Part shown: positions 1,385 to 13,976 of the stretch, piece after piece | Numbering within the stretch: the first letter of the stretch is position 1 | Layout: each line of letters begins with the position of its first letter | Assembly (NCBI GenBank): GCA_011364975.1 | Contig: RDOE01000078.1 | Span: 1-14,945 of the forward strand | Length of the DNA stretch: 14,945 nt | Direction of reading: 5' to 3' | Source: Promethearchaeota archaeon | GTDB lineage: Archaea; Asgardarchaeota; Lokiarchaeia; Sigyniarchaeales; SOKP01 | Made by a program: the position numbers and the translations under genes | Notes under the pieces: generated by a model | What the model was told of the DNA's origin: nothing | What the model saw: the letters and a program-made list of their open reading frames with translations, nothing else | Databases searched by the model: none

Positions 1385-3244
1385 ATGAATACAATAAAAA
1401 AAAAAGCAGTTATTATACTTTCTATTTTTTGCTTTCTCCTACTCTCTAACTTTGGTTTAGTATTATATAAAGTAGATTCTGCTAATACTATTGATTTATC
1501 AAAAAGATTAACCGGAATGAAAACATCAGCAACTTATAATATTACTATAGATATTGATGATACTGATCCAACAAAAAATTGGGAAACTAGGAAAGCTGAA
1601 GGTGTTTGTACGGGTTCAGGGACTTCAATTAATCCTTATATTATCAGCAATCATCTCTTTAATATCACCGCAGGAGGAAATTGCTTAGTGATTTCAAACT
1701 CTCGTAAATTCTTTAGAGTTTTAGATTGCGACTTTATTACTACAGGACTTTCTGTAGCAATATATTTACAAAATGCTACAAATGGATTAGTAGAAGGTAA
1801 TCATATACTAAATATCTTTGCAGGTATGGCCATTGATAATTGTAGCAAGATTACATTTACTGATAATAATGTTACCTTATGTGGTATTGGTATAAGTGTG
1901 GCTGATTCAGATTCTCTAGATTTTAACTTAAACATTATAGATCAAACAGTAATTACTTTTGGAATTGATATTGATAATTGCGAAGAATGTACGTTTACTC
2001 AAAATACTGTTAGTGAAGGTGCAAGTGCAGGAATATACCTTGAAGGAAGTAATCAAATTACTTTCAATGGTAATATAATATTTAATAATACTAATGGAAT
2101 TTATAATCAGAATTCAAACTATACTGTGATAAACGGAAATACAGTTGGTCCAAATGATAATAATGGAATACATATCTATCAAAGCTATCATGGACAAATT
2201 AGTAGCAATACTGTAGATCTTAACGCCAATAATGGTATTGAATTACAAGAAAGTCATTTTTTCACTATCTCATCTAATTCTGCTAATAATAATACGTGGT
2301 GGGGTATTTATCTTCAATCATCAAGCCAATATAACAAAATCTCTCATAATGATCTTAATTTTAATGATGATGATGGGATTCATGGTACCTCATCTGAAAA
2401 TAATGAATTCATTGATAATACTTGTAATAATAATGATGGAAATGGTATTTATTTATCATCATGTGATTATTCTACAATTTCTGATAATATATGTAATAAT
2501 AACAATGAAGAAGGCATCTACACAACTGGTTCTGATCATTCTCTAATATCCAATAATATTGCGTTTAATAATACTCTTAATGGTATCCGTCTTAATTCTC
2601 AATTTAACTTAACGATTTTAAATAACCAAGCTTATCATAACTATCAGAATGGAATAAGGCTCTATAGTGTTGATCAATCAATTGTAGAAGGTAACAATGC
2701 TCATCATAACAGCTGGGATGGCTTAAGGATTAGAAACGGTTGCCAACAAAATATTATCAAAGAAAATTTAGCTCGCTATAACAATTTAAGCGGAATTTAC
2801 TTATACAGTACTGCTGACAACAATCTACTTTATAAAAATACAGCATCCTATAATATTGAGCATGGAATCTATTTATCGAGTGCTGATAACAATGTTATTA
2901 CCTCAAATATCGCTAATTCCAACACATTAAATGGAATACATCTTTTAAATAGCGTTGGTAATTCCATAATGAGTAATACCGCTAATAACAATAACAACGG
3001 AACATATCTGGATACAAGTAATAATAATATTATTTTCGGGAATAATTTAATTAATAACGATGTTTGTTATAATGAAACAGGCAGCACTGGAAACGTTTTC
3101 GAAGATAATATATGCTCTGCAGCAGGAGTTCCTACAGCACCCTTAGATCCATTTATTCTAGGATTGATTATTGGATTAATCATCGGTTTAGGGGCATTAG
3201 CAGCTGTTTTAGTTATATTCTTCCTTCGTGGAAGAAAAAAGTAA
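1385..3244 (+). CDS. Cell-surface right-handed parallel beta-helix (NosD/PbH1-repeat) protein with C-terminal TM anchor
   Basis: N-terminal KKK plus hydrophobic signal/anchor; GSGTxxNPYII motif; many ~22-23 aa repeats of the form NGIxLxxSxxNxIxxNxxxxN; many N-x-S/T sequons; C-terminal TM (FILGLIIGLIIGLGALAAVLVIFFL) plus basic tail RGRKK. Confidence 0.9.
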   Translation: MNTIKKKAVIILSIFCFLLLSNFGLVLYKVDSANTIDLSKRLTGMKTSATYNITIDIDDTDPTKNWETRKAEGVCTGSGTSINPYIISNHLFNITAGGNCLVISNSRKFFRVLDCDFITTGLSVAIYLQNATNGLVEGNHILNIFAGMAIDNCSKITFTDNNVTLCGIGISVADSDSLDFNLNIIDQTVITFGIDIDNCEECTFTQNTVSEGASAGIYLEGSNQITFNGNIIFNNTNGIYNQNSNYTVINGNTVGPNDNNGIHIYQSYHGQISSNTVDLNANNGIELQESHFFTISSNSANNNTWWGIYLQSSSQYNKISHNDLNFNDDDGIHGTSSENNEFIDNTCNNNDGNGIYLSSCDYSTISDNICNNNNEEGIYTTGSDHSLISNNIAFNNTLNGIRLNSQFNLTILNNQAYHNYQNGIRLYSVDQSIVEGNNAHHNSWDGLRIRNGCQQNIIKENLARYNNLSGIYLYSTADNNLLYKNTASYNIEHGIYLSSADNNVITSNIANSNTLNGIHLLNSVGNSIMSNTANNNNNGTYLDTSNNNIIFGNNLINNDVCYNETGSTGNVFEDNICSAAGVPTAPLDPFILGLIIGLIIGLGALAAVLVIFFLRGRKK

Positions 3245-8381: not shown

Positions 8382-9941
8382 TTATAATATACTTTTAAAT
8401 ATCTCACGTTTCTTAAGCATATATTTTATTTGTTCTTTCAACGGGGCTAAATTTGCTAATTCTACTATACTTTTATCTGAATCCTTTAAATATGACCATT
8501 TATTCTTTTGCGTTAAAATATTTTTCTGTTCTATTGATAATCTCTCAATTAATTGATTCAAGCCATGTTTCTCGGCAATTTTTTGAGCATTGGTTAATGC
8601 TTCTTGAGCTTTAATCAAATCTAAAGTTATTAGATCAAGTTTTATTTCTAATAAATAAGATTCAACCAATAGCCAGTGCGATTTTTGATTAATAGCATAA
8701 TCTAAGATTTGATTAATATATAAGCGTATCTGATCTAACAATTCCAAATTATTAGTATTTTGTAATTCGACTAGTAATATATCACAAAGATTAAGTAAAG
8801 CTCTGATTGATGTTTCAAAAAGAAAGGGAATTTTTTTTCGCACTATTTCCTTAAATAATTCGCTAGCTTTAATTTGATCACTTTTCAGTGAACTTGATTT
8901 CAAGATTAAAGCCTTATTGTAAAGATAAATAAGATTTACATTTTCATTACTTTCTTGATTATTAATCTTTTCTAAATCCTGGAAATAAATCTGCGCTCGG
9001 GTAATATCATTTATTTCAATGGCAATTTGGATTGCTGTATCTAAAGTAGAGATTTTTAAGGGTTCAATGTTAATACTTTTATCTATTTCTAAAGACTTTT
9101 CTATGTACTCTAAAGCTCGTACAAAATCTCCTTTTATTTGATATAAACCACTTAAATTATTAAAAAGCCCCCCAATCACCAACCGATTTTTAATCTTTTT
9201 AAAAATTACTAAACTCTTTTCGCAATATTCTAAACTTTTGTCTATATTACCTCTATAAAAATTTATTCCACTAATAGTATTGTAACATAGCCCTACGTAG
9301 AACATATTCTTGCTCTCTATTGCAATTTTTAAACTACGCTCCACAAGTTTTAATCCACGATCAAGCTCACCATCATAAACAAGAAAACGTCCAGTACTAT
9401 AAAGAGACTCTGCAAGTTCTTGCTTATTATCTACTCTCTCTCGTAGAGCTATGCTTCCTTCTAAATAATCGAAAGCTTTGATCGAATCACCTTCATGAAA
9501 GGATACTAAACCTTGACAATAGAGTAAGTGAGCCTTCTTACCTATAAGAAATGATAATGAATCTTGGGGAATTGTTTTGAATAATTTTTCTATTTCTAAA
9601 ATAATTTTGATAACTTTATCATGTTTGTATTGATAAGTATAAATATGAGTGAGTAAAATTAGCGCATCTATTAACTGGAGGGTGTAATCATAAGATTTAG
9701 CTAAGTTATACATTACTTCAATTGTTTTAATTGCCTCATCATATCTTCCCTGCCAAATTAAAAGTTGTCCTTTTAAGTGATAACAGCTTAACTTATCGTA
9801 ATGTTGGATTCCAATCTTCTTCTCAAAGAAATCTAATAGTTCGAGGGCTTTATCATACTCTCCCTCTTCAATGAAATTTTCTACTTGAACAAATTCTTTA
9901 GGTTTAGCGTCTCTCCTTATTTTCTTCGCCCCTATTATCAT
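8382..9941 (-). CDS. Tetratricopeptide-repeat protein (long ~40-aa TPR units), paralogue of 11805-13364
   Basis: Repeats GRYDEAI, GDSIKAFDYLEGSI, GELDRGLKLVERSL, GNIDKSLEYCEKSL and GDFVRALEYIEKSL. The C-terminal block ALLNLCDILLVEL..ESYLLEIKL..AQKIAEKHG..W..LK..LA.LKEQI is shared with the second TPR protein. Confidence 0.9.
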   Translation of the reverse strand: MIIGAKKIRRDAKPKEFVQVENFIEEGEYDKALELLDFFEKKIGIQHYDKLSCYHLKGQLLIWQGRYDEAIKTIEVMYNLAKSYDYTLQLIDALILLTHIYTYQYKHDKVIKIILEIEKLFKTIPQDSLSFLIGKKAHLLYCQGLVSFHEGDSIKAFDYLEGSIALRERVDNKQELAESLYSTGRFLVYDGELDRGLKLVERSLKIAIESKNMFYVGLCYNTISGINFYRGNIDKSLEYCEKSLVIFKKIKNRLVIGGLFNNLSGLYQIKGDFVRALEYIEKSLEIDKSINIEPLKISTLDTAIQIAIEINDITRAQIYFQDLEKINNQESNENVNLIYLYNKALILKSSSLKSDQIKASELFKEIVRKKIPFLFETSIRALLNLCDILLVELQNTNNLELLDQIRLYINQILDYAINQKSHWLLVESYLLEIKLDLITLDLIKAQEALTNAQKIAEKHGLNQLIERLSIEQKNILTQKNKWSYLKDSDKSIVELANLAPLKEQIKYMLKKREIFKSIL

Positions 9942-10098: not shown

Positions 10099-10887
10099 TT
10101 ATTCTTCTTTTTTATACAATTTTAGTAGGGCTATTAAAGGAATTAAGGAATCAAAATAGACAAAAGCGCTGTCCGCATCTAATTTCTGTTCCATAATTAA
10201 TTTTTTCAATTTTAATATATACTCTAAACGTAGATCATAAAATTGCTTAAACCGTTTTTTATCTAAAAACACAAAATTGAATTCTGGTTCATTTATTCCT
10301 GATAAAAACTCTTTATAGATCTCTTTAGCTTTTTCAATATCTTCCAAGTGGTCATCAAGATGATTTAGTGAAGAACTCAAGTAATTCACCAACCTAATAA
10401 CGTTATATATTGCACTTTTATAGGTTTGGATTTCCGAAAGTAAGAAATCATGAAGTTCATGTGGATCCGAAGGGATTTTCATAAATTCTTTTTGAATTTC
10501 TTCTTCCTTTTGAAATCTATCACTAATCCGATAGTATTTTGGAGGTATTCTTTCTCGTTCGCCTACTTTTTTTTTCCCTCGCTTAGATTCTAAAAGTCCA
10601 TCACTTTCCATGGCTCTTAATATTCTAGATACTGTAGATTTGCTTTGTTTTAAATAATTACTTATCTGAGAGACATTTAATTCATGATATAAATTAAGAA
10701 ACATCCAAATATCATAACGTGCTGTATGTTTAGATATTAAAGATTCCCAATTCTTTCCTAAATAAAGATTACCATAATAATTTTGTTTAATCGATAAATC
10801 CCCTGAATTAAATTCTGTTGAATCAATAATTTCTTTATTATATTTTTCTGGTTCGGCATTTTGGTTGTCTTTCATTAAATATATCAA
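10099..10887 (-). CDS. Winged helix-turn-helix (ArsR/MarR-like) transcriptional regulator with long helical C-terminal domain
   Basis: RYDIWMFLNLYHELNVSQISNYLKQSKSTVSRILRAMESDGLLES followed by a wing ending PKYYRIS. The start may be ATG 10875 rather than TTG 10887. Confidence 0.87.
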   Translation of the reverse strand: MIYLMKDNQNAEPEKYNKEIIDSTEFNSGDLSIKQNYYGNLYLGKNWESLISKHTARYDIWMFLNLYHELNVSQISNYLKQSKSTVSRILRAMESDGLLESKRGKKKVGERERIPPKYYRISDRFQKEEEIQKEFMKIPSDPHELHDFLLSEIQTYKSAIYNVIRLVNYLSSSLNHLDDHLEDIEKAKEIYKEFLSGINEPEFNFVFLDKKRFKQFYDLRLEYILKLKKLIMEQKLDADSAFVYFDSLIPLIALLKLYKKEE

Positions 10888-10905
10888 CTTAACCTTTAAT
10901 ATATG

Positions 10906-10914
10906 CTTATAAAA
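10906..10914 (-). promoter_or_regulatory. Putative TATA box for the wHTH gene
   Basis: TTTTATAAG on the minus strand, about 18 nt before TTG 10887 and 30 nt before ATG 10875. Confidence 0.45.
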
Positions 10915-10976
10915 CTAGTTATATTTTTTTTTCCTAAAATTATGCTATCTATATATAGTAATTAGTGATGGCAAAA

Positions 10977-10984
10977 TTTAAATA
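10977..10984 (+). promoter_or_regulatory. Putative BRE/TATA box (GGCAAAA-TTTAAATA) for the secreted protein gene
   Basis: Canonical TTTAAATA preceded by a purine-rich BRE-like stretch; it overlaps the first operator-like box by 3 nt. Confidence 0.6.
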
Positions 10985-11054
10985 TGAGTGTGTCCCATTA
11001 TTCATTAGTAATGGGACAGTGCCAACATACATCTCATATAGGACTGTACCATTA
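10982..11054. promoter_or_regulatory. Array of three pseudo-palindromic 19-bp operator-like boxes at a 27-bp period (consensus TAATGGGACWGTCCCATTA)
   Basis: 10982-11000 ATATGAGTGTGTCCCATTA; 11009-11027 TAATGGGACAGTGCCAACA; 11036-11054 ATATAGGACTGTACCATTA; both spacers are 8 bp. Includes the perfect inverted repeat TGTCCCATTA (10991-11000) / TAATGGGACA (11009-11018). Confidence 0.72.
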
Positions 11055-11116
11055 TAATTAGAAATCTATCCAAAAAAGAGAGTCTTAATAATTTAAAATC
11101 AATAAAAATAAGAATA

Positions 11117-11122
11117 GGGTGA
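11117..11122 (+). promoter_or_regulatory. Shine-Dalgarno-like GGGTGA
   Basis: 7 nt upstream of the ATG at 11130. Confidence 0.65.
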
Positions 11123-11129
11123 AATCTCA

Positions 11130-11672
11130 ATGAAAAAATTAAATTCTGCAAGAACTACCCTTTTATTTGCTGCATTAGGTCTATTAGCCTTAATTTTTAT
11201 TCCCCAAGCTAGCGCTGGTATTCCTCCATTTATCCCACAAGGTCAGATGGGAAATAATCTTATACTTCCTACATTTGTAGGTGAATGGTGGCCGTTTAGC
11301 ACTTCAGAAAACCTCTTTTTTGCTTTCGGCTGGGCATCAACTGAAGAAGAAATTGAAAATGATTGGACTCCGAAACAGCCATGGGAAGTAAAACTCTTTA
11401 TTAATAATGAGGAGATTGTATTACGAAGATACGATATCTTTGTTAAAGATGAAGATGGATTTATAAAAAACTCTGTTTGGTATTACATATTTGGTCCAGA
11501 TTATTTTACACCAAATGGAGAATACCTCTTAAGATGGGAATTTTGGGTTAGGAGACCATACCAAGGAGATGGTAAGAACTATTGGAGGATATTCGTGGAT
11601 TATGGAGGTTATGTTTTTGGAGTTCCCGGAACTGTGGCTTGCTTTGAATATTATTTAAATATTGTTGAATAA
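11130..11672 (+). CDS. Secreted aromatic-rich hypothetical protein
   Basis: Sec-type signal MKKLNSARTTLLFAALGLLALIFIPQASA|G (AxA cleavage site). The mature ~151 aa has 9 Trp, many Tyr/Phe and beta-strand-like segments, and no C-terminal TM. SD present. Confidence 0.85.
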   Translation: MKKLNSARTTLLFAALGLLALIFIPQASAGIPPFIPQGQMGNNLILPTFVGEWWPFSTSENLFFAFGWASTEEEIENDWTPKQPWEVKLFINNEEIVLRRYDIFVKDEDGFIKNSVWYYIFGPDYFTPNGEYLLRWEFWVRRPYQGDGKNYWRIFVDYGGYVFGVPGTVACFEYYLNIVE

Positions 11673-11709
11673 CAATTTAATAAATTATTTAATCAATAAA
11701 ATTAATTAA

Positions 11710-11774
11710 AAGTAGCAAAAAGTATAGTAAAAATGTTTTTAAGAAGATGAAAATTTGCTACTTATTTTTTTTTT
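11710..11774 (+). terminator. Probable terminator between convergent genes (10-bp inverted repeat plus T10)
   Basis: AAGTAGCAAA (11710-11719) and TTTGCTACTT (11754-11763) are perfect reverse complements, followed by T10 at 11765-11774. Confidence 0.5.
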
Positions 11775-11804: not shown

Positions 11805-13364
11805 TCATTTTTGTTGTTTTTTATCTTTTGCTGCAATTTTTATATCATCAAATTCCTGCTCATAGAATTTAACTGGTTTTGTATAATCAATTGGAGATTC
11901 ACAGATCCAACATACATTTTCCAAACCAGTCAATGCTCGAGCACAGTTGTCGCAATATATTGCACCGCAATCACATATATATGTGAACTTTAGTGCTTCT
12001 CCCCTACATACTACACAGATTTTCAACTCTTTATGAATTGCTACTTTTTCTTCAGTAATAAATGCTGGGAGAATGACCCGTTTCTCATCAAGCTCTTCAA
12101 TTTGTTCATGTAACCTCGCTAATTTTATACGTTCAGCCATCGATGCGCCAGTATCTTTTAATTGCTCCCATGTGCTTGATTTTTTATGCAAAGTTGATTG
12201 CTCGATCATAATTCTCTCCACCATCTCTTTATTCCCAAACCTTTCAGCTATTTGTTTTGCCTGAGTTAAAAATCTTTTAGCCTTTAGATTATCAAAGGTT
12301 AACAAAGAAATTTTTGCTTGTAATAAGTATACTTCCGGTATAATAACGGAGGATTGTTGATGTTCTGCGAGTTCTAATAACTTCTGAATGTAGGGTTGAA
12401 TCTCATTTAGTATTTCGGGATCATCAGTTAAATGAAGCTCAATCAGCAATAAATCACATAACTGAATGAGTGCTGCGATCCTGCCCTCAAACGTGGCAGA
12501 ATCATCAAAAGCAACTCTTTTGAAGATATCTTCCGATTCAATTCTTTTCCTTGCTCGTAGACTCGATTTTAAAAGCAAAGCCTTATACATATCATAAATC
12601 TCATTGTATATTTTATTATTATATTTTTCTTTCAGTTCACCGAGATTTTCAAAATAAACTTGTGCTTCTTTATAGTTTCCCTTCCTAATGTAAATTTCAA
12701 TCAAATTTCCTAATGGAAAGGCCAATAAGGGTTCGTAACCAACCCTTAGAGCTTCTTTAAGATATTTTATCGCGTTATCATACTCTTTCAGAGAAAAATA
12801 ATTAAAACCAAGGTTATTAAGACTAGCAGAAATCAATATAATATTGTGTGTATCCTTAACAAGCTCATACGCCTTTTTATTAAATTTTAAAGAACCTTGA
12901 ACATCACCATTAAAAATATTCAGATTTGCTTTTATCCTCGCTAAGAAAGATTCCCTTTCTCTTAAATCTAGTGAACAATCTTTCTTAATCTTACTTAAAA
13001 GAATCTCTGCTTGTTCAATTAAGGCTTCACTTTCATTAATCTTTCCCAGCATAGCAAGTGAACTTGCTTGAATAAGTAAAATATCATATGAGGAGATTAA
13101 ATCTTCTTCCTTTTTAAATTGCTGAAATAATCCGTCAGCACAATCAATAGCTTTTAAATATTCCCCCAATTTCGAAAAGATATCCGCTTTGAGAAGCCTT
13201 ATTAAAAGTGCTGCTCTATGTGAATATTTAGCTGATTTTTCTAGTTCAGAAACAATTAGGAGAGCTTCCTTTAACTGACCTTGATTTACTAAATTTTTAA
13301 TTTTTTCTAAATCTTGTATTATGTAACGTTGTTCAGGTGCTTTTTGTTTATCATCTTTCACCAA
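11805..13364 (-). CDS. TPR protein with C-terminal C4C4 RING-like zinc finger (candidate E3 ligase)
   Basis: TPR units GEYLKAI, GDVQGSLKF, NNLGFNYFSLKEYDNAIKYLKEAL and GNYKEAQVYF. C-terminal CVVC-x10-CDC-x4-CDNC-x10-CWIC at 12017-11901. Start is TTG 13364 or GTG 13361. Confidence 0.88.
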   Translation of the reverse strand: MVKDDKQKAPEQRYIIQDLEKIKNLVNQGQLKEALLIVSELEKSAKYSHRAALLIRLLKADIFSKLGEYLKAIDCADGLFQQFKKEEDLISSYDILLIQASSLAMLGKINESEALIEQAEILLSKIKKDCSLDLRERESFLARIKANLNIFNGDVQGSLKFNKKAYELVKDTHNIILISASLNNLGFNYFSLKEYDNAIKYLKEALRVGYEPLLAFPLGNLIEIYIRKGNYKEAQVYFENLGELKEKYNNKIYNEIYDMYKALLLKSSLRARKRIESEDIFKRVAFDDSATFEGRIAALIQLCDLLLIELHLTDDPEILNEIQPYIQKLLELAEHQQSSVIIPEVYLLQAKISLLTFDNLKAKRFLTQAKQIAERFGNKEMVERIMIEQSTLHKKSSTWEQLKDTGASMAERIKLARLHEQIEELDEKRVILPAFITEEKVAIHKELKICVVCRGEALKFTYICDCGAIYCDNCARALTGLENVCWICESPIDYTKPVKFYEQEFDDIKIAAKDKKQQK

Positions 13365-13736: not shown

Positions 13737-13976
13737 TTACTTTACAGCTTCAAAATAAATATACCACTGTTCTTCATCGTCGAGATATTCTGTCCCCAAA
13801 TGTTTATGCTTTGTTTGCTTAGCTAAATCTCTAGGAACACTCTCAGATGCTGGCTTATAGTCCGTAATTACCTTTAGGACTGTCCCAGGGCGCATTTTCA
13901 TTAATTCTTTTTTTGCTTTAAGTGCCGGAACAGGACAAACTAATCCACATACATTTAATTCTTGATCAAATTTCAT
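13737..13976 (-). CDS. tusA: TusA/SirA-family sulfur carrier protein
   Basis: 79 aa; LNVCGLVCPVPALKAKKELMKMRPGTVLKVITD contains the CPxP motif and the G.VL.V.TD segment typical of the family. Confidence 0.92.
   Translation of the reverse strand: MKFDQELNVCGLVCPVPALKAKKELMKMRPGTVLKVITDYKPASESVPRDLAKQTKHKHLGTEYLDDEEQWYIYFEAVK

Follow-up and report, generated by a model that had tools for sequence, protein, structure and literature searches.

A candidate operator array between a winged-helix regulator gene and a secreted-protein gene in an Asgard archaeon

The candidate operator and the closest described systems

A local winged helix-turn-helix (wHTH) protein with an operator over a promoter is a well-known kind of system. 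ArsR/SmtB and MarR proteins repress as dimers, bound to palindromes adjacent to the genes that encode them. Among the archaeal repressors, LrpA of Pyrococcus belongs to the Lrp family, and MDR1 of Archaeoglobus is DtxR-like. Passages of PMC2995911 describe how archaeal repressors, LrpA and MDR1 among them, block the recruitment of RNA polymerase from sites at the TATA box or downstream of it, and sections of PMC12993045 give operator sites near promoter elements as the general rule for archaeal regulators. For Ss-LrpB of Sulfolobus solfataricus, parts of two accounts (PMC1802622, PMC2995911) report three similar 15-bp semi-palindromic boxes that each take one dimer, cooperatively, with about 100 bp of DNA wrapped. 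Here we analyze a candidate operator of three boxes between the divergent genes of a wHTH regulator and a secreted protein in a Promethearchaeota genome (3.74 Mb, 30.6% G+C); the stretch studied, called the window below, is the complete 14,945-bp contig C182. Asgard gene control has hardly been studied so far, and no transcription factor of these archaea is known to us to have a defined operator.

The boxes lie in a 254-bp intergenic region with the wHTH regulator gene (minus strand) on one side and a signal-peptide gene (plus strand), referred to as the cargo gene, on the other. Directly 3' of the regulator gene and on the same strand stands a gene for a tetratricopeptide repeat (TPR) protein. 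The features on which the analysis depends are as follows.

8382 to 9941, minus strand: TPR protein gene, 519 amino acids, with TPR_12 and TPR_MalT matches.
10099 to 10875, minus strand: wHTH regulator gene, 258 amino acids, start codon ATG at 10875 (MKDNQ...); the mechanical open reading frame (ORF) from TTG at 10887 has 262 amino acids.
10970 to 10984, plus strand: promoter of the secreted-protein gene, a purine run (ggcaaaa) resembling a TFB recognition element (BRE), followed by the TATA box TTTAAATA (10977 to 10984).
10985 to 10997, plus strand: box 1, TGAGTGTGTCCCA, with the conserved core TGTnCCA (10991 to 10997); its left half, TGAGyr, is conserved and non-palindromic.
10998 to 11011, plus strand: spacer 1, 14 nucleotides, of which the length is kept and the sequence is not.
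11012 to 11024, plus strand: box 2, TGGGACAGTGCCA, a 13-bp palindrome (TGGnACAGTnCCA) at about +5 to +18 from the predicted start site.
11039 to 11051, plus strand: box 3, TAGGACTGTACCA, in which ACTGTnCCA alone is conserved, in one subclade; it lies within the transcribed 5' untranslated region (5'UTR).
11130 to 11672, plus strand: secreted-protein gene, 180 amino acids, with an N-terminal signal peptide ending in ASA-G, judged by eye.

For the regulator, the ATG at 10875 is preferred because the start codon context is kept among orthologs. Archaeal start sites generally lie roughly 26 to 28 nucleotides from the TATA box. The abstract of PMC8553660 gives a distance of about 28, and from the position of its TATA box the start site of the secreted-protein gene is predicted near 11007. 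Box 1 starts directly after the TATA box TTTAAATA and lies upstream of any plausible start site. The candidate operator would span the TATA edge to about +18, which matches the known positions of archaeal repressors.

Like the Ss-LrpB control region, the locus has three similar, regularly spaced boxes, here known from sequence. However, Ss-LrpB is an Lrp/AsnC protein (HTH plus RAM domain), whereas the regulator here has an ArsR/MarR-like wHTH and an unrelated helical C-terminal domain; the Ss-LrpB boxes have an AT-rich centre (TTGCAAAATTTGCAA), whereas those described here are GC-rich and include one full palindrome; and the Ss-LrpB boxes lie in its own control region, whereas ours sit on the core promoter of the neighboring gene. 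The likeness to Pyrococcus LrpA and Archaeoglobus MDR1 is one of position, as their operators also lie between TATA and start, where RNA polymerase is blocked and TBP/TFB may stay (passages of PMC2995911). Those proteins are of other families, and the mechanism demonstrated in vitro for them is suggested here by position. With ArsR/SmtB and MarR repressors the regulator shares a wHTH of the same fold class, but unlike them it adds a disordered N-terminus of about 40 amino acids and a helical C-terminal domain of about 140 amino acids. Our literature search found no paper on the regulator family or the module, although supplementary tables of Asgard comparative-genomics papers might list the family. 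As far as that search shows, the family, the motif and the multi-copy cassette with swapped cargo are undescribed.

Taken together, the explanation that we consider best, and moderately probable, is that the adjacent wHTH protein binds boxes 1 and 2 and represses the promoter of the secreted-protein gene, with box 3 as an accessory element and release through the C-terminal domain of the regulator and/or the TPR protein. The locus offers a concrete pair for testing in vitro: a regulator of 258 amino acids and, at a clear BRE/TATA promoter, a 13-bp palindrome with additional half-sites.

Conservation of the boxes in orthologous and paralogous modules

The original prediction had placed three 13-mers at 10985, 11012 and 11039, with starts 27 bp apart, between the divergent wHTH gene and the signal-peptide gene, and the window sequence confirmed all of them in that place. 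With the consensus given there and up to three mismatches, the window holds 7 matches against 1.16 expected, and 0 of 200 shuffles reached 7. This test is circular, because the consensus was derived from the same boxes. Therefore, we carried out an unbiased phased-repeat search, in which triples of similar 13-mers at equal spacing anywhere in the 254-bp intergenic region were scored and compared with 500 dinucleotide shuffles. The top triple began at position 10988 with a spacing of 27 and a score of 30.8; the shuffles gave a mean of 20.1, a standard deviation of 2.2 and a maximum of 29.2, so that none of the 500 reached the observed score. The phased repeat is real.

Orthologous regulators, 68 to 82% identical, were collected from two genomes of the same genus, three genomes of a sister genus and several metagenome contigs. 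Removal of duplicates (L045 is the same as L022, L040 and L046 as L023, and L053 as L047) left ten distinct promoters. All column counts below come from the first eight orthologs; L051 and L052 were added later to make ten. From the TATA box through box 2, the orthologous promoters align without gaps. The cargo-side TATA box (TTTAAAtA) is invariant in 7/8 columns and is found in every paralog group. Box 2 has 10/13 invariant columns, and its match to TGGnACAGTnCCA is exact in eight of the ten orthologs and has one mismatch in the other two, with perfect palindromes in L043 and L044. In box 1, the centre and right half keep 6/7 columns and the left half 3/6, and the core TGTnCCA is kept in nine of the ten orthologs. 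The spacers carry no invariant column (0/14 in spacer 1, in the gapless alignment, and 0/14 in spacer 2), so box 2 and the core of box 1 are conserved above their surroundings, as expected for an operator. Box 3 is present in 6/10 orthologs and has 0/13 invariant columns; its left half reads TAGGAC, TCATAC, CCGCAC, TTGCAC, CAGCAC and TCATAC in the six. It is missing from L041, L042, L043 and L047, where box 2 is equally conserved.

These comparisons changed several details of the array as it had been described. Of its three equivalent palindromes, box 2 is the sole conserved full palindrome, and boxes 1 and 3 keep one half only; with respect to dyad symmetry, half-sites 14 nucleotides apart fit equally well. 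The TAA/TTA flanks that had extended the consensus to a 19-mer fall in the unconserved spacers. Box 2 had also been thought to cover the start site, and it begins about 5 nucleotides downstream of the predicted one. What stands is one conserved palindrome (box 2) and one conserved half-box at the TATA box (box 1), while box 3 is reduced to a clade-specific half-box. The motif does occur beside orthologous regulators, with boxes 1 and 2 present in the 10 orthologous promoters. This conservation supports a putative role of the boxes as a cis-regulatory operator tied to the adjacent wHTH gene.

A genome-wide scan had been proposed as a further check. Run on the 3.74-Mb genome, it found no further promoter with the motif. 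With at most one mismatch, TGGGACNGTCCCA has two sites in the genome, both in the window (box 2 and 13875), and the reversed control also has two. With at most two mismatches the counts were 36 versus 15 for the reversed control, and with at most three they were 388 versus 234, a mild excess. Candidate regulon targets at C116:84, C180:17848 and C65:11084, obtained with the motifs TGGNACAGTNCCA and GTMCCA-N14-TGGNAC, were rejected, as each falls within a long ORF or at the end of a contig and control patterns, reversed, gave similar numbers. With the refined motifs, no wider regulon was found in the genome to which the window belongs, in keeping with a regulator dedicated to its own locus. The intergenic regions upstream of 1385 and 13364 in the window hold no boxes, as judged by eye. 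The second site of the scan, TAGGACTGTCCCA at 13875 to 13887, lies inside the TusA ORF (13737 to 13976, minus strand), 2.9 kb from box 2; it may be a chance match or a second site.

The gene downstream of the boxes changes from ortholog to ortholog. In the window, L022 and L023, the divergent gene belongs to the secreted-protein family of the window; in L051 and L052 it encodes a 310-amino-acid membrane-anchored protein, in L044 a member of the RPIEDWL secreted family, and in L047 a beta-helix protein. L042 keeps boxes 1 and 2 though a tandem regulator copy and no divergent gene sits there, and it is the sole ortholog with a degenerate cargo-side TATA box (TTTAAACA). The boxes are also kept in L041 and L043, where no divergent cargo gene is evident nearby. 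It appears from this comparison that the boxes belong with the regulator rather than with the cargo, and that the cargo has been swapped between orthologs behind a conserved operator. An element in the 5'UTR is likewise shared across different cargo genes:

11061 to 11068, plus strand: 5'UTR element GAAATCTA, identical across the six orthologs with box 3, despite three different cargo genes downstream.

Conservation of the divergent partner across the regulator family was considered and dropped, as tblastn matches for the secreted protein stand beside the closest orthologs only. Two orthologs have a second regulator copy in tandem upstream. The copy at L042:1882-2292, matched over amino acids 5 to 141 only, has its own TATA box, a box 1 and a degenerate box 2 (TGGCATTGTTTCA); the match of the copy at L043:1-240 is cut by the end of the locus.

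More distant relatives of the regulator, at 35 to 55% identity, occur in up to four copies per genome. Their paralog groups have box sequences of their own at the same promoter positions, and the layout of TATA box and boxes is shared. Besides group A, the following arrangements were found after the TATA box.

Group B, 5 loci: TAAATCTTTCCCA-N14-TGAGCCGTCCCA-N15-TGGGACnGC, again with the 27-bp phase.
Group C, 12 loci: TGAAACGTTCT...TGGCACGAT.
Group D, 2 loci: TGGATCGTTGCA-N14-TGCAAC-N6-GTTGCA-N15-TGCAAC, with GTTGCA as the first half-site.
Group E, 3 loci: TGArCCGTCCCA only.

By eye, the divergent gene encodes a hydrophobic N-terminus in 9/10 loci inspected, L002 being counted through its likely partner, a 239-amino-acid ORF at 535 to 1254. 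The recognition helices of the regulators differ together with the boxes: QSKSTVSR(V/I)L accompanies the half-sites CCCA/TGGG in groups A and B, RNKSTLSRVL accompanies GTTGCA in group D, and Q(S/G)KTTVARHL accompanies the boxes AACGTTC/TGGCAC in group C. Genome G046 combines one group A, two group B and one group D module. Since modules of different groups occur within one genome, shared general factors cannot explain the box differences; a module-specific binder could explain them, and the adjacent regulator is the obvious candidate. Natural variants in the paralog groups already sample the specificity space. On contig C206 of the same genome, three modules (L037, L032 and L039) of two box groups lie about 3.3 kb apart as a tandem cassette array.

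Proposed repression and rival readings

In the proposed mechanism, the operator would adjoin the TATA box (10977 to 10984) and run over the predicted start near 11007, with the core TGTCCCA in box 1 and the palindrome TGGnACAGTnCCA in box 2. Once bound, the regulator would exclude RNA polymerase from the promoter, whether TBP/TFB binding persists or is disturbed, perhaps with cooperation between the boxes, and the secreted-protein gene would stay repressed until the regulator is released. The releasing signal could reach the regulator by way of its helical C-terminal domain, the TPR protein of the downstream gene or the two together. Box 3 (11039 to 11051), confined to one subclade, would be accessory: it might be a third site of lower strength, or it might pair with box 2 as the 3' arm of a hairpin in the 5'UTR. 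Regulator, operator and the first part of the 5'UTR would form a cassette that is kept while the secreted cargo is exchanged.

Metatranscriptome contigs from three runs of two studies bear on the cargo side. They span 11029 to 11743 only, with 3' ends at 11680 to 11743 and with 5' ends that differ between runs (11029, 11041 with adapter letters directly before it, and 11052); such contigs lose their ends and cannot fix the start site, and a DNA run beside them has no cover of the region. The RNA contigs show in situ transcription of the cargo gene as a separate unit whose 5'UTR includes box 3. The regulator and TPR genes have no RNA contigs in the same runs, which is not evidence of silence. 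For repression, the in situ transcription of the secreted-protein gene is neutral, neither supporting nor refuting it.

Several observations weigh against the repressor mechanism. The link between regulator and boxes consists of adjacency and parallel variation, and the parallel variation is weaker evidence than it appears because adjacent sequences share descent. Group E combines a group C-like helix (STVARHL) with the half-site GTCCCA, which resembles that of groups A and B. Box 2 alone is a proper palindrome, boxes 1 and 3 keeping one half, and the site grammar is ambiguous between a 13-bp palindrome and half-sites 14 nucleotides apart. An RNA hairpin of box 2 and box 3, with marginal covariation, is possible. 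In the three metatranscriptomes the cargo is expressed and the regulator is not seen, and an activator or no regulation at all fits this equally. Finally, beyond the wHTH the AlphaFold2 model of the regulator is of low quality (mean predicted local distance difference test [pLDDT] of 60).

The ambiguity of the site grammar leads to the strongest of the rival readings, which we regard as doubtful. In it, the sites are inverted repeats 14 nucleotides apart, each bound by one elongated dimer with its wHTH domains about two turns apart on one face of the DNA, and the 13-bp boxes are junctions between dimers. The window contains two such pairs, GTCCCA-N14-TGGGAC (10992 to 11017) and GTGCCA-N14-TAGGAC (11019 to 11044), and GTCCCATTA/TAATGGGAC form a perfect 9-bp inverted repeat there. 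Groups A, B and D all keep the N14/N15 spacing, whereas they differ in the gap within box 2 (1 nucleotide in A, 0 in B and 6 in D), and group D has perfect GTTGCA-N14-TGCAAC and GTTGCA-N15-TGCAAC repeats. By arithmetic, 20 bp between half-site centres is 1.9 turns and leaves the half-sites on the same face, and 27 bp is 2.6 turns and puts successive boxes on alternating faces. A predicted 39-residue helix of the regulator (amino acids 138 to 176) could form a long coiled coil, but this prediction has low confidence (pLDDT 50 to 69). The orthologs argue the other way: the right half of box 2, GTnCCA, is kept in the 4/10 orthologs that have no partner half-site 14 nucleotides downstream, and in orthologs the inverted repeat loses its 8th and 9th base pairs without compensation. 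Moreover, 10 bp separate the invariant TGG of box 2 from its invariant CCA. This distance is the usual reach of a compact wHTH dimer.

Another reading, which we think rather unlikely, is that the array mainly serves the promoter of the regulator-TPR operon, by autoregulation or activation, with control of the divergent gene secondary or with the two combined in a dual switch. Two further elements of the intergenic region are relevant to it.

10949 to 10958, minus strand: TATA-like element ctatatatag, candidate TATA box of the regulator promoter, with tATATA (nearly) invariant in eight orthologs.
10963 to 10971, no strand assigned: conserved element TAGTGATGG between the two TATA boxes, with aTagtGATG kept in eight orthologs.

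We infer that the element at 10949 to 10958 belongs to the promoter of the regulator; gttttataag on the minus strand is an alternative TATA-like site closer to the regulator ATG. The boxes lie 27 to 75 bp upstream of 10949 to 10958, and they stay with the regulator in L042, which has no divergent cargo, as well as in L041 and L043, where none is evident nearby. Ss-LrpB provides the precedent, since three regularly spaced boxes in its own control region work as a concentration-dependent switch between activation and repression (parts of PMC1802622 and PMC2995911). However, the boxes adjoin and lie downstream of the cargo-side TATA box with its purine-rich BRE, and this geometry is kept in every paralog group, while the TATA box and start site of the regulator itself are only putative. 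In L042 the cargo-side TATA box is degenerate, there alone, as expected if the cargo-side job was lost with the divergent cargo. Because the sites are also upstream of the regulator-side element, a dual role is possible under the preferred reading as well. As to the element TAGTGATGG, paralog groups B, C and D have the palindrome TGATCA at the equivalent position; it is unlike the boxes, and a second factor may read the promoter region.

In the RNA reading, box 2 and box 3 would pair to form a stem-loop at the mRNA 5' end (about 11011 to 11053) that controls stability or translation, the DNA palindrome being a by-product. We judge it unlikely. The minimum free energy fold of 11006 to 11135 does pair box 2 with box 3, which is transcribed, and 64/66 cells of this stem are paired across the six orthologs with box 3. 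Among its 11 pairs, 2 are compensatory (GC:3, AU:2, GG:1 and CG:4, UA:1, CA:1) and 2 change from G-C to G-U, and at the position that varies most, the left half of box 3, itself unconserved, still complements the right half of box 2 in 5/6 orthologs. Covariation scored 0.182, compared with a mean of 0.127 for the shuffles, of which 19/500 reached 0.182, but such shuffle ranks are reached by 5 to 25% of unstructured related alignments. The fold energy is ordinary (z of -0.70, with 50/200 shuffles folding as well), and covariation in group B is unfavorable (+0.48, one compensatory pair among 10). Any palindrome that occurs twice can necessarily pair with its second copy, so the DNA model predicts the pairing as well, and no RNA contig extends to box 2, although these contigs lose their ends. 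Two observations limit the reading further: conservation of box 2 is just as high in the four orthologs with neither box 3 nor another partner, and box 1 shares the core yet lies outside the transcript. Therefore, the RNA reading is live for box 3 only.

It is very unlikely that the boxes serve another binder (an unlinked transcription factor, a chromatin protein or a basal-factor paralog) or are core-promoter or initiator elements, with the wHTH protein having another target, for although the tie between regulator protein and box DNA is indirect and the conserved TAGTGATGG/TGATCA element means that probably more than one factor reads the region, the box sequences differ between modules in one genome and follow the regulator paralog group, and no other promoter in the 3.74-Mb genome has the motif, contrary to what a shared factor would lead one to expect.

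Regulator, TPR protein and secreted protein

The DNA-binding domain of the regulator is identified by Pfam HTH_5, with 30.4 bits against a cut-off of 22 over amino acids 62 to 101 of the 262-amino-acid ORF. Pfam families of ArsR/MarR-type wHTH cover amino acids 62 to 105 with scores near their cut-offs, among them MarR (PF01047; 25.1 bits versus 24.6) and MarR_2 (PF12802; 25.9 versus 27), and about 35 HTH residues are matched. The NCBIfam ArsR/SmtB model HTH_metalloreg (NF033788) reached 26.4 bits against a cut-off of 55, and Lrs14 (24 bits versus 90) and Sta1 (19.6 versus 80) also stayed below their NCBIfam cut-offs. No Lrp/AsnC or RAM domain was among the 11 Pfam hits at E ≤ 0.01. In the AlphaFold2 model, the wHTH (amino acids 41 to 120) is confident, and the C-terminal region of about 140 residues consists of long helices predicted with low confidence; the N-terminal stretch of about 40 amino acids is disordered. 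Sequence matches in the PDB are weak and cover the wHTH only, the nearest being PagR (2zkz, E of 5e-4), and no solved or named relative of the helical C-terminal domain was found.

The 49 homologs of the regulator have generic names only. Those with a taxon label come from metagenome-assembled genomes (MAGs) of Asgard archaea, except for two marine-sediment-metagenome records and one labeled "archaeon"; the Asgard names on orthologous loci and close homologs include Promethearchaeota, one Hermodarchaeota and Hodarchaeota. To judge from these records, the family appears to be Asgard-specific, as it was found only in Asgard MAGs.

A TPR homolog lies directly downstream on the same strand in 22 of the 32 regulator copies with at least 1.3 kb of downstream sequence. 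It is absent from that position in the other 10, in groups D and E and part of B. The conserved downstream gene suggests that a protein partner may act on the regulator instead of, or besides, a small ligand. A complex prediction of the TPR protein with the regulator scored 0.11 against a mark of 0.32, without controls, and no conclusion was drawn from it. Protein P0137 of a Heimdallarchaeaceae MAG (729 amino acids) has N-terminal TPR repeats fused to an HTH_5 wHTH at amino acids 501 to 542, and this wHTH carries the KYYR wing motif, as does the regulator. We take this fusion as a weak hint that wHTH and TPR proteins might act together. The window also encodes a paralog of the module TPR protein (34% identity over 296 amino acids) at 11805 to 13364 on the minus strand, convergent to the secreted-protein gene; this 519-amino-acid TPR protein has a C-terminal RING-type zinc finger (zf-C3HC4_3, E of 6e-5, below the Pfam cut-off).

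The combination brings to mind the RRNPP regulators of Firmicutes (PlcR, PrgX, Rgg and NprR), in which an XRE-type HTH is fused to TPR and a short exported peptide is re-imported. The components resemble those of RRNPP systems: DNA-binding and TPR domains occur together with a neighboring gene whose product is exported, and the target promoter carries a palindromic box. The defining arrangement, HTH and TPR in one polypeptide with a short exported peptide, is absent: wHTH and TPR are separate genes here, with P0137 as the one distant fused TPR-wHTH protein known, and the exported products have 170 to 370 amino acids, come from various unrelated families and differ from one ortholog to the next through exchange of the gene. 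Such long, varied and exchanged products argue against a dedicated signal peptide.

A broader proposal, to which we give a low probability, is that the locus is one copy of an Asgard-specific multi-copy cassette made up of a wHTH regulator, its usual cytoplasmic TPR partner and a cognate operator array on a divergent promoter. The operator codes would differ among paralog groups, so that several orthogonal switches could work in a single genome, and recombination would exchange the secreted or surface-protein cargo behind the conserved operator and 5'UTR. In its boldest form, the TPR protein would sense an extracellular or envelope cue linked to the cargo, as a split archaeal counterpart of the RRNPP type. 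If the cassette idea is true, it would show how Asgard archaea control and swap their secreted and surface proteins, which is relevant to a syntrophic lifestyle of cell contact; if the basic reading alone is true, the locus is an ordinary local repressor/operator pair.

The secreted protein has no Pfam or NCBIfam match. None of its 40 homologs is functionally named by any source, and the named ones are from Promethearchaeota. A structure Atlas search with it returned unnamed clusters only. The fold search gave no meaningful PDB match; its Ig-like rows were weak (template modeling score of about 0.3, root mean square deviation of about 13 Å, E > 0.001), so no fold was assigned. The AlphaFold2 model (pLDDT 73) consists mostly of beta strands. 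Elsewhere in the window, with no adjoining regulator, the plus strand from 1385 to 3244 encodes a 619-amino-acid beta-helix/NosD-like protein of the same class as the cargo in L007 and L047.

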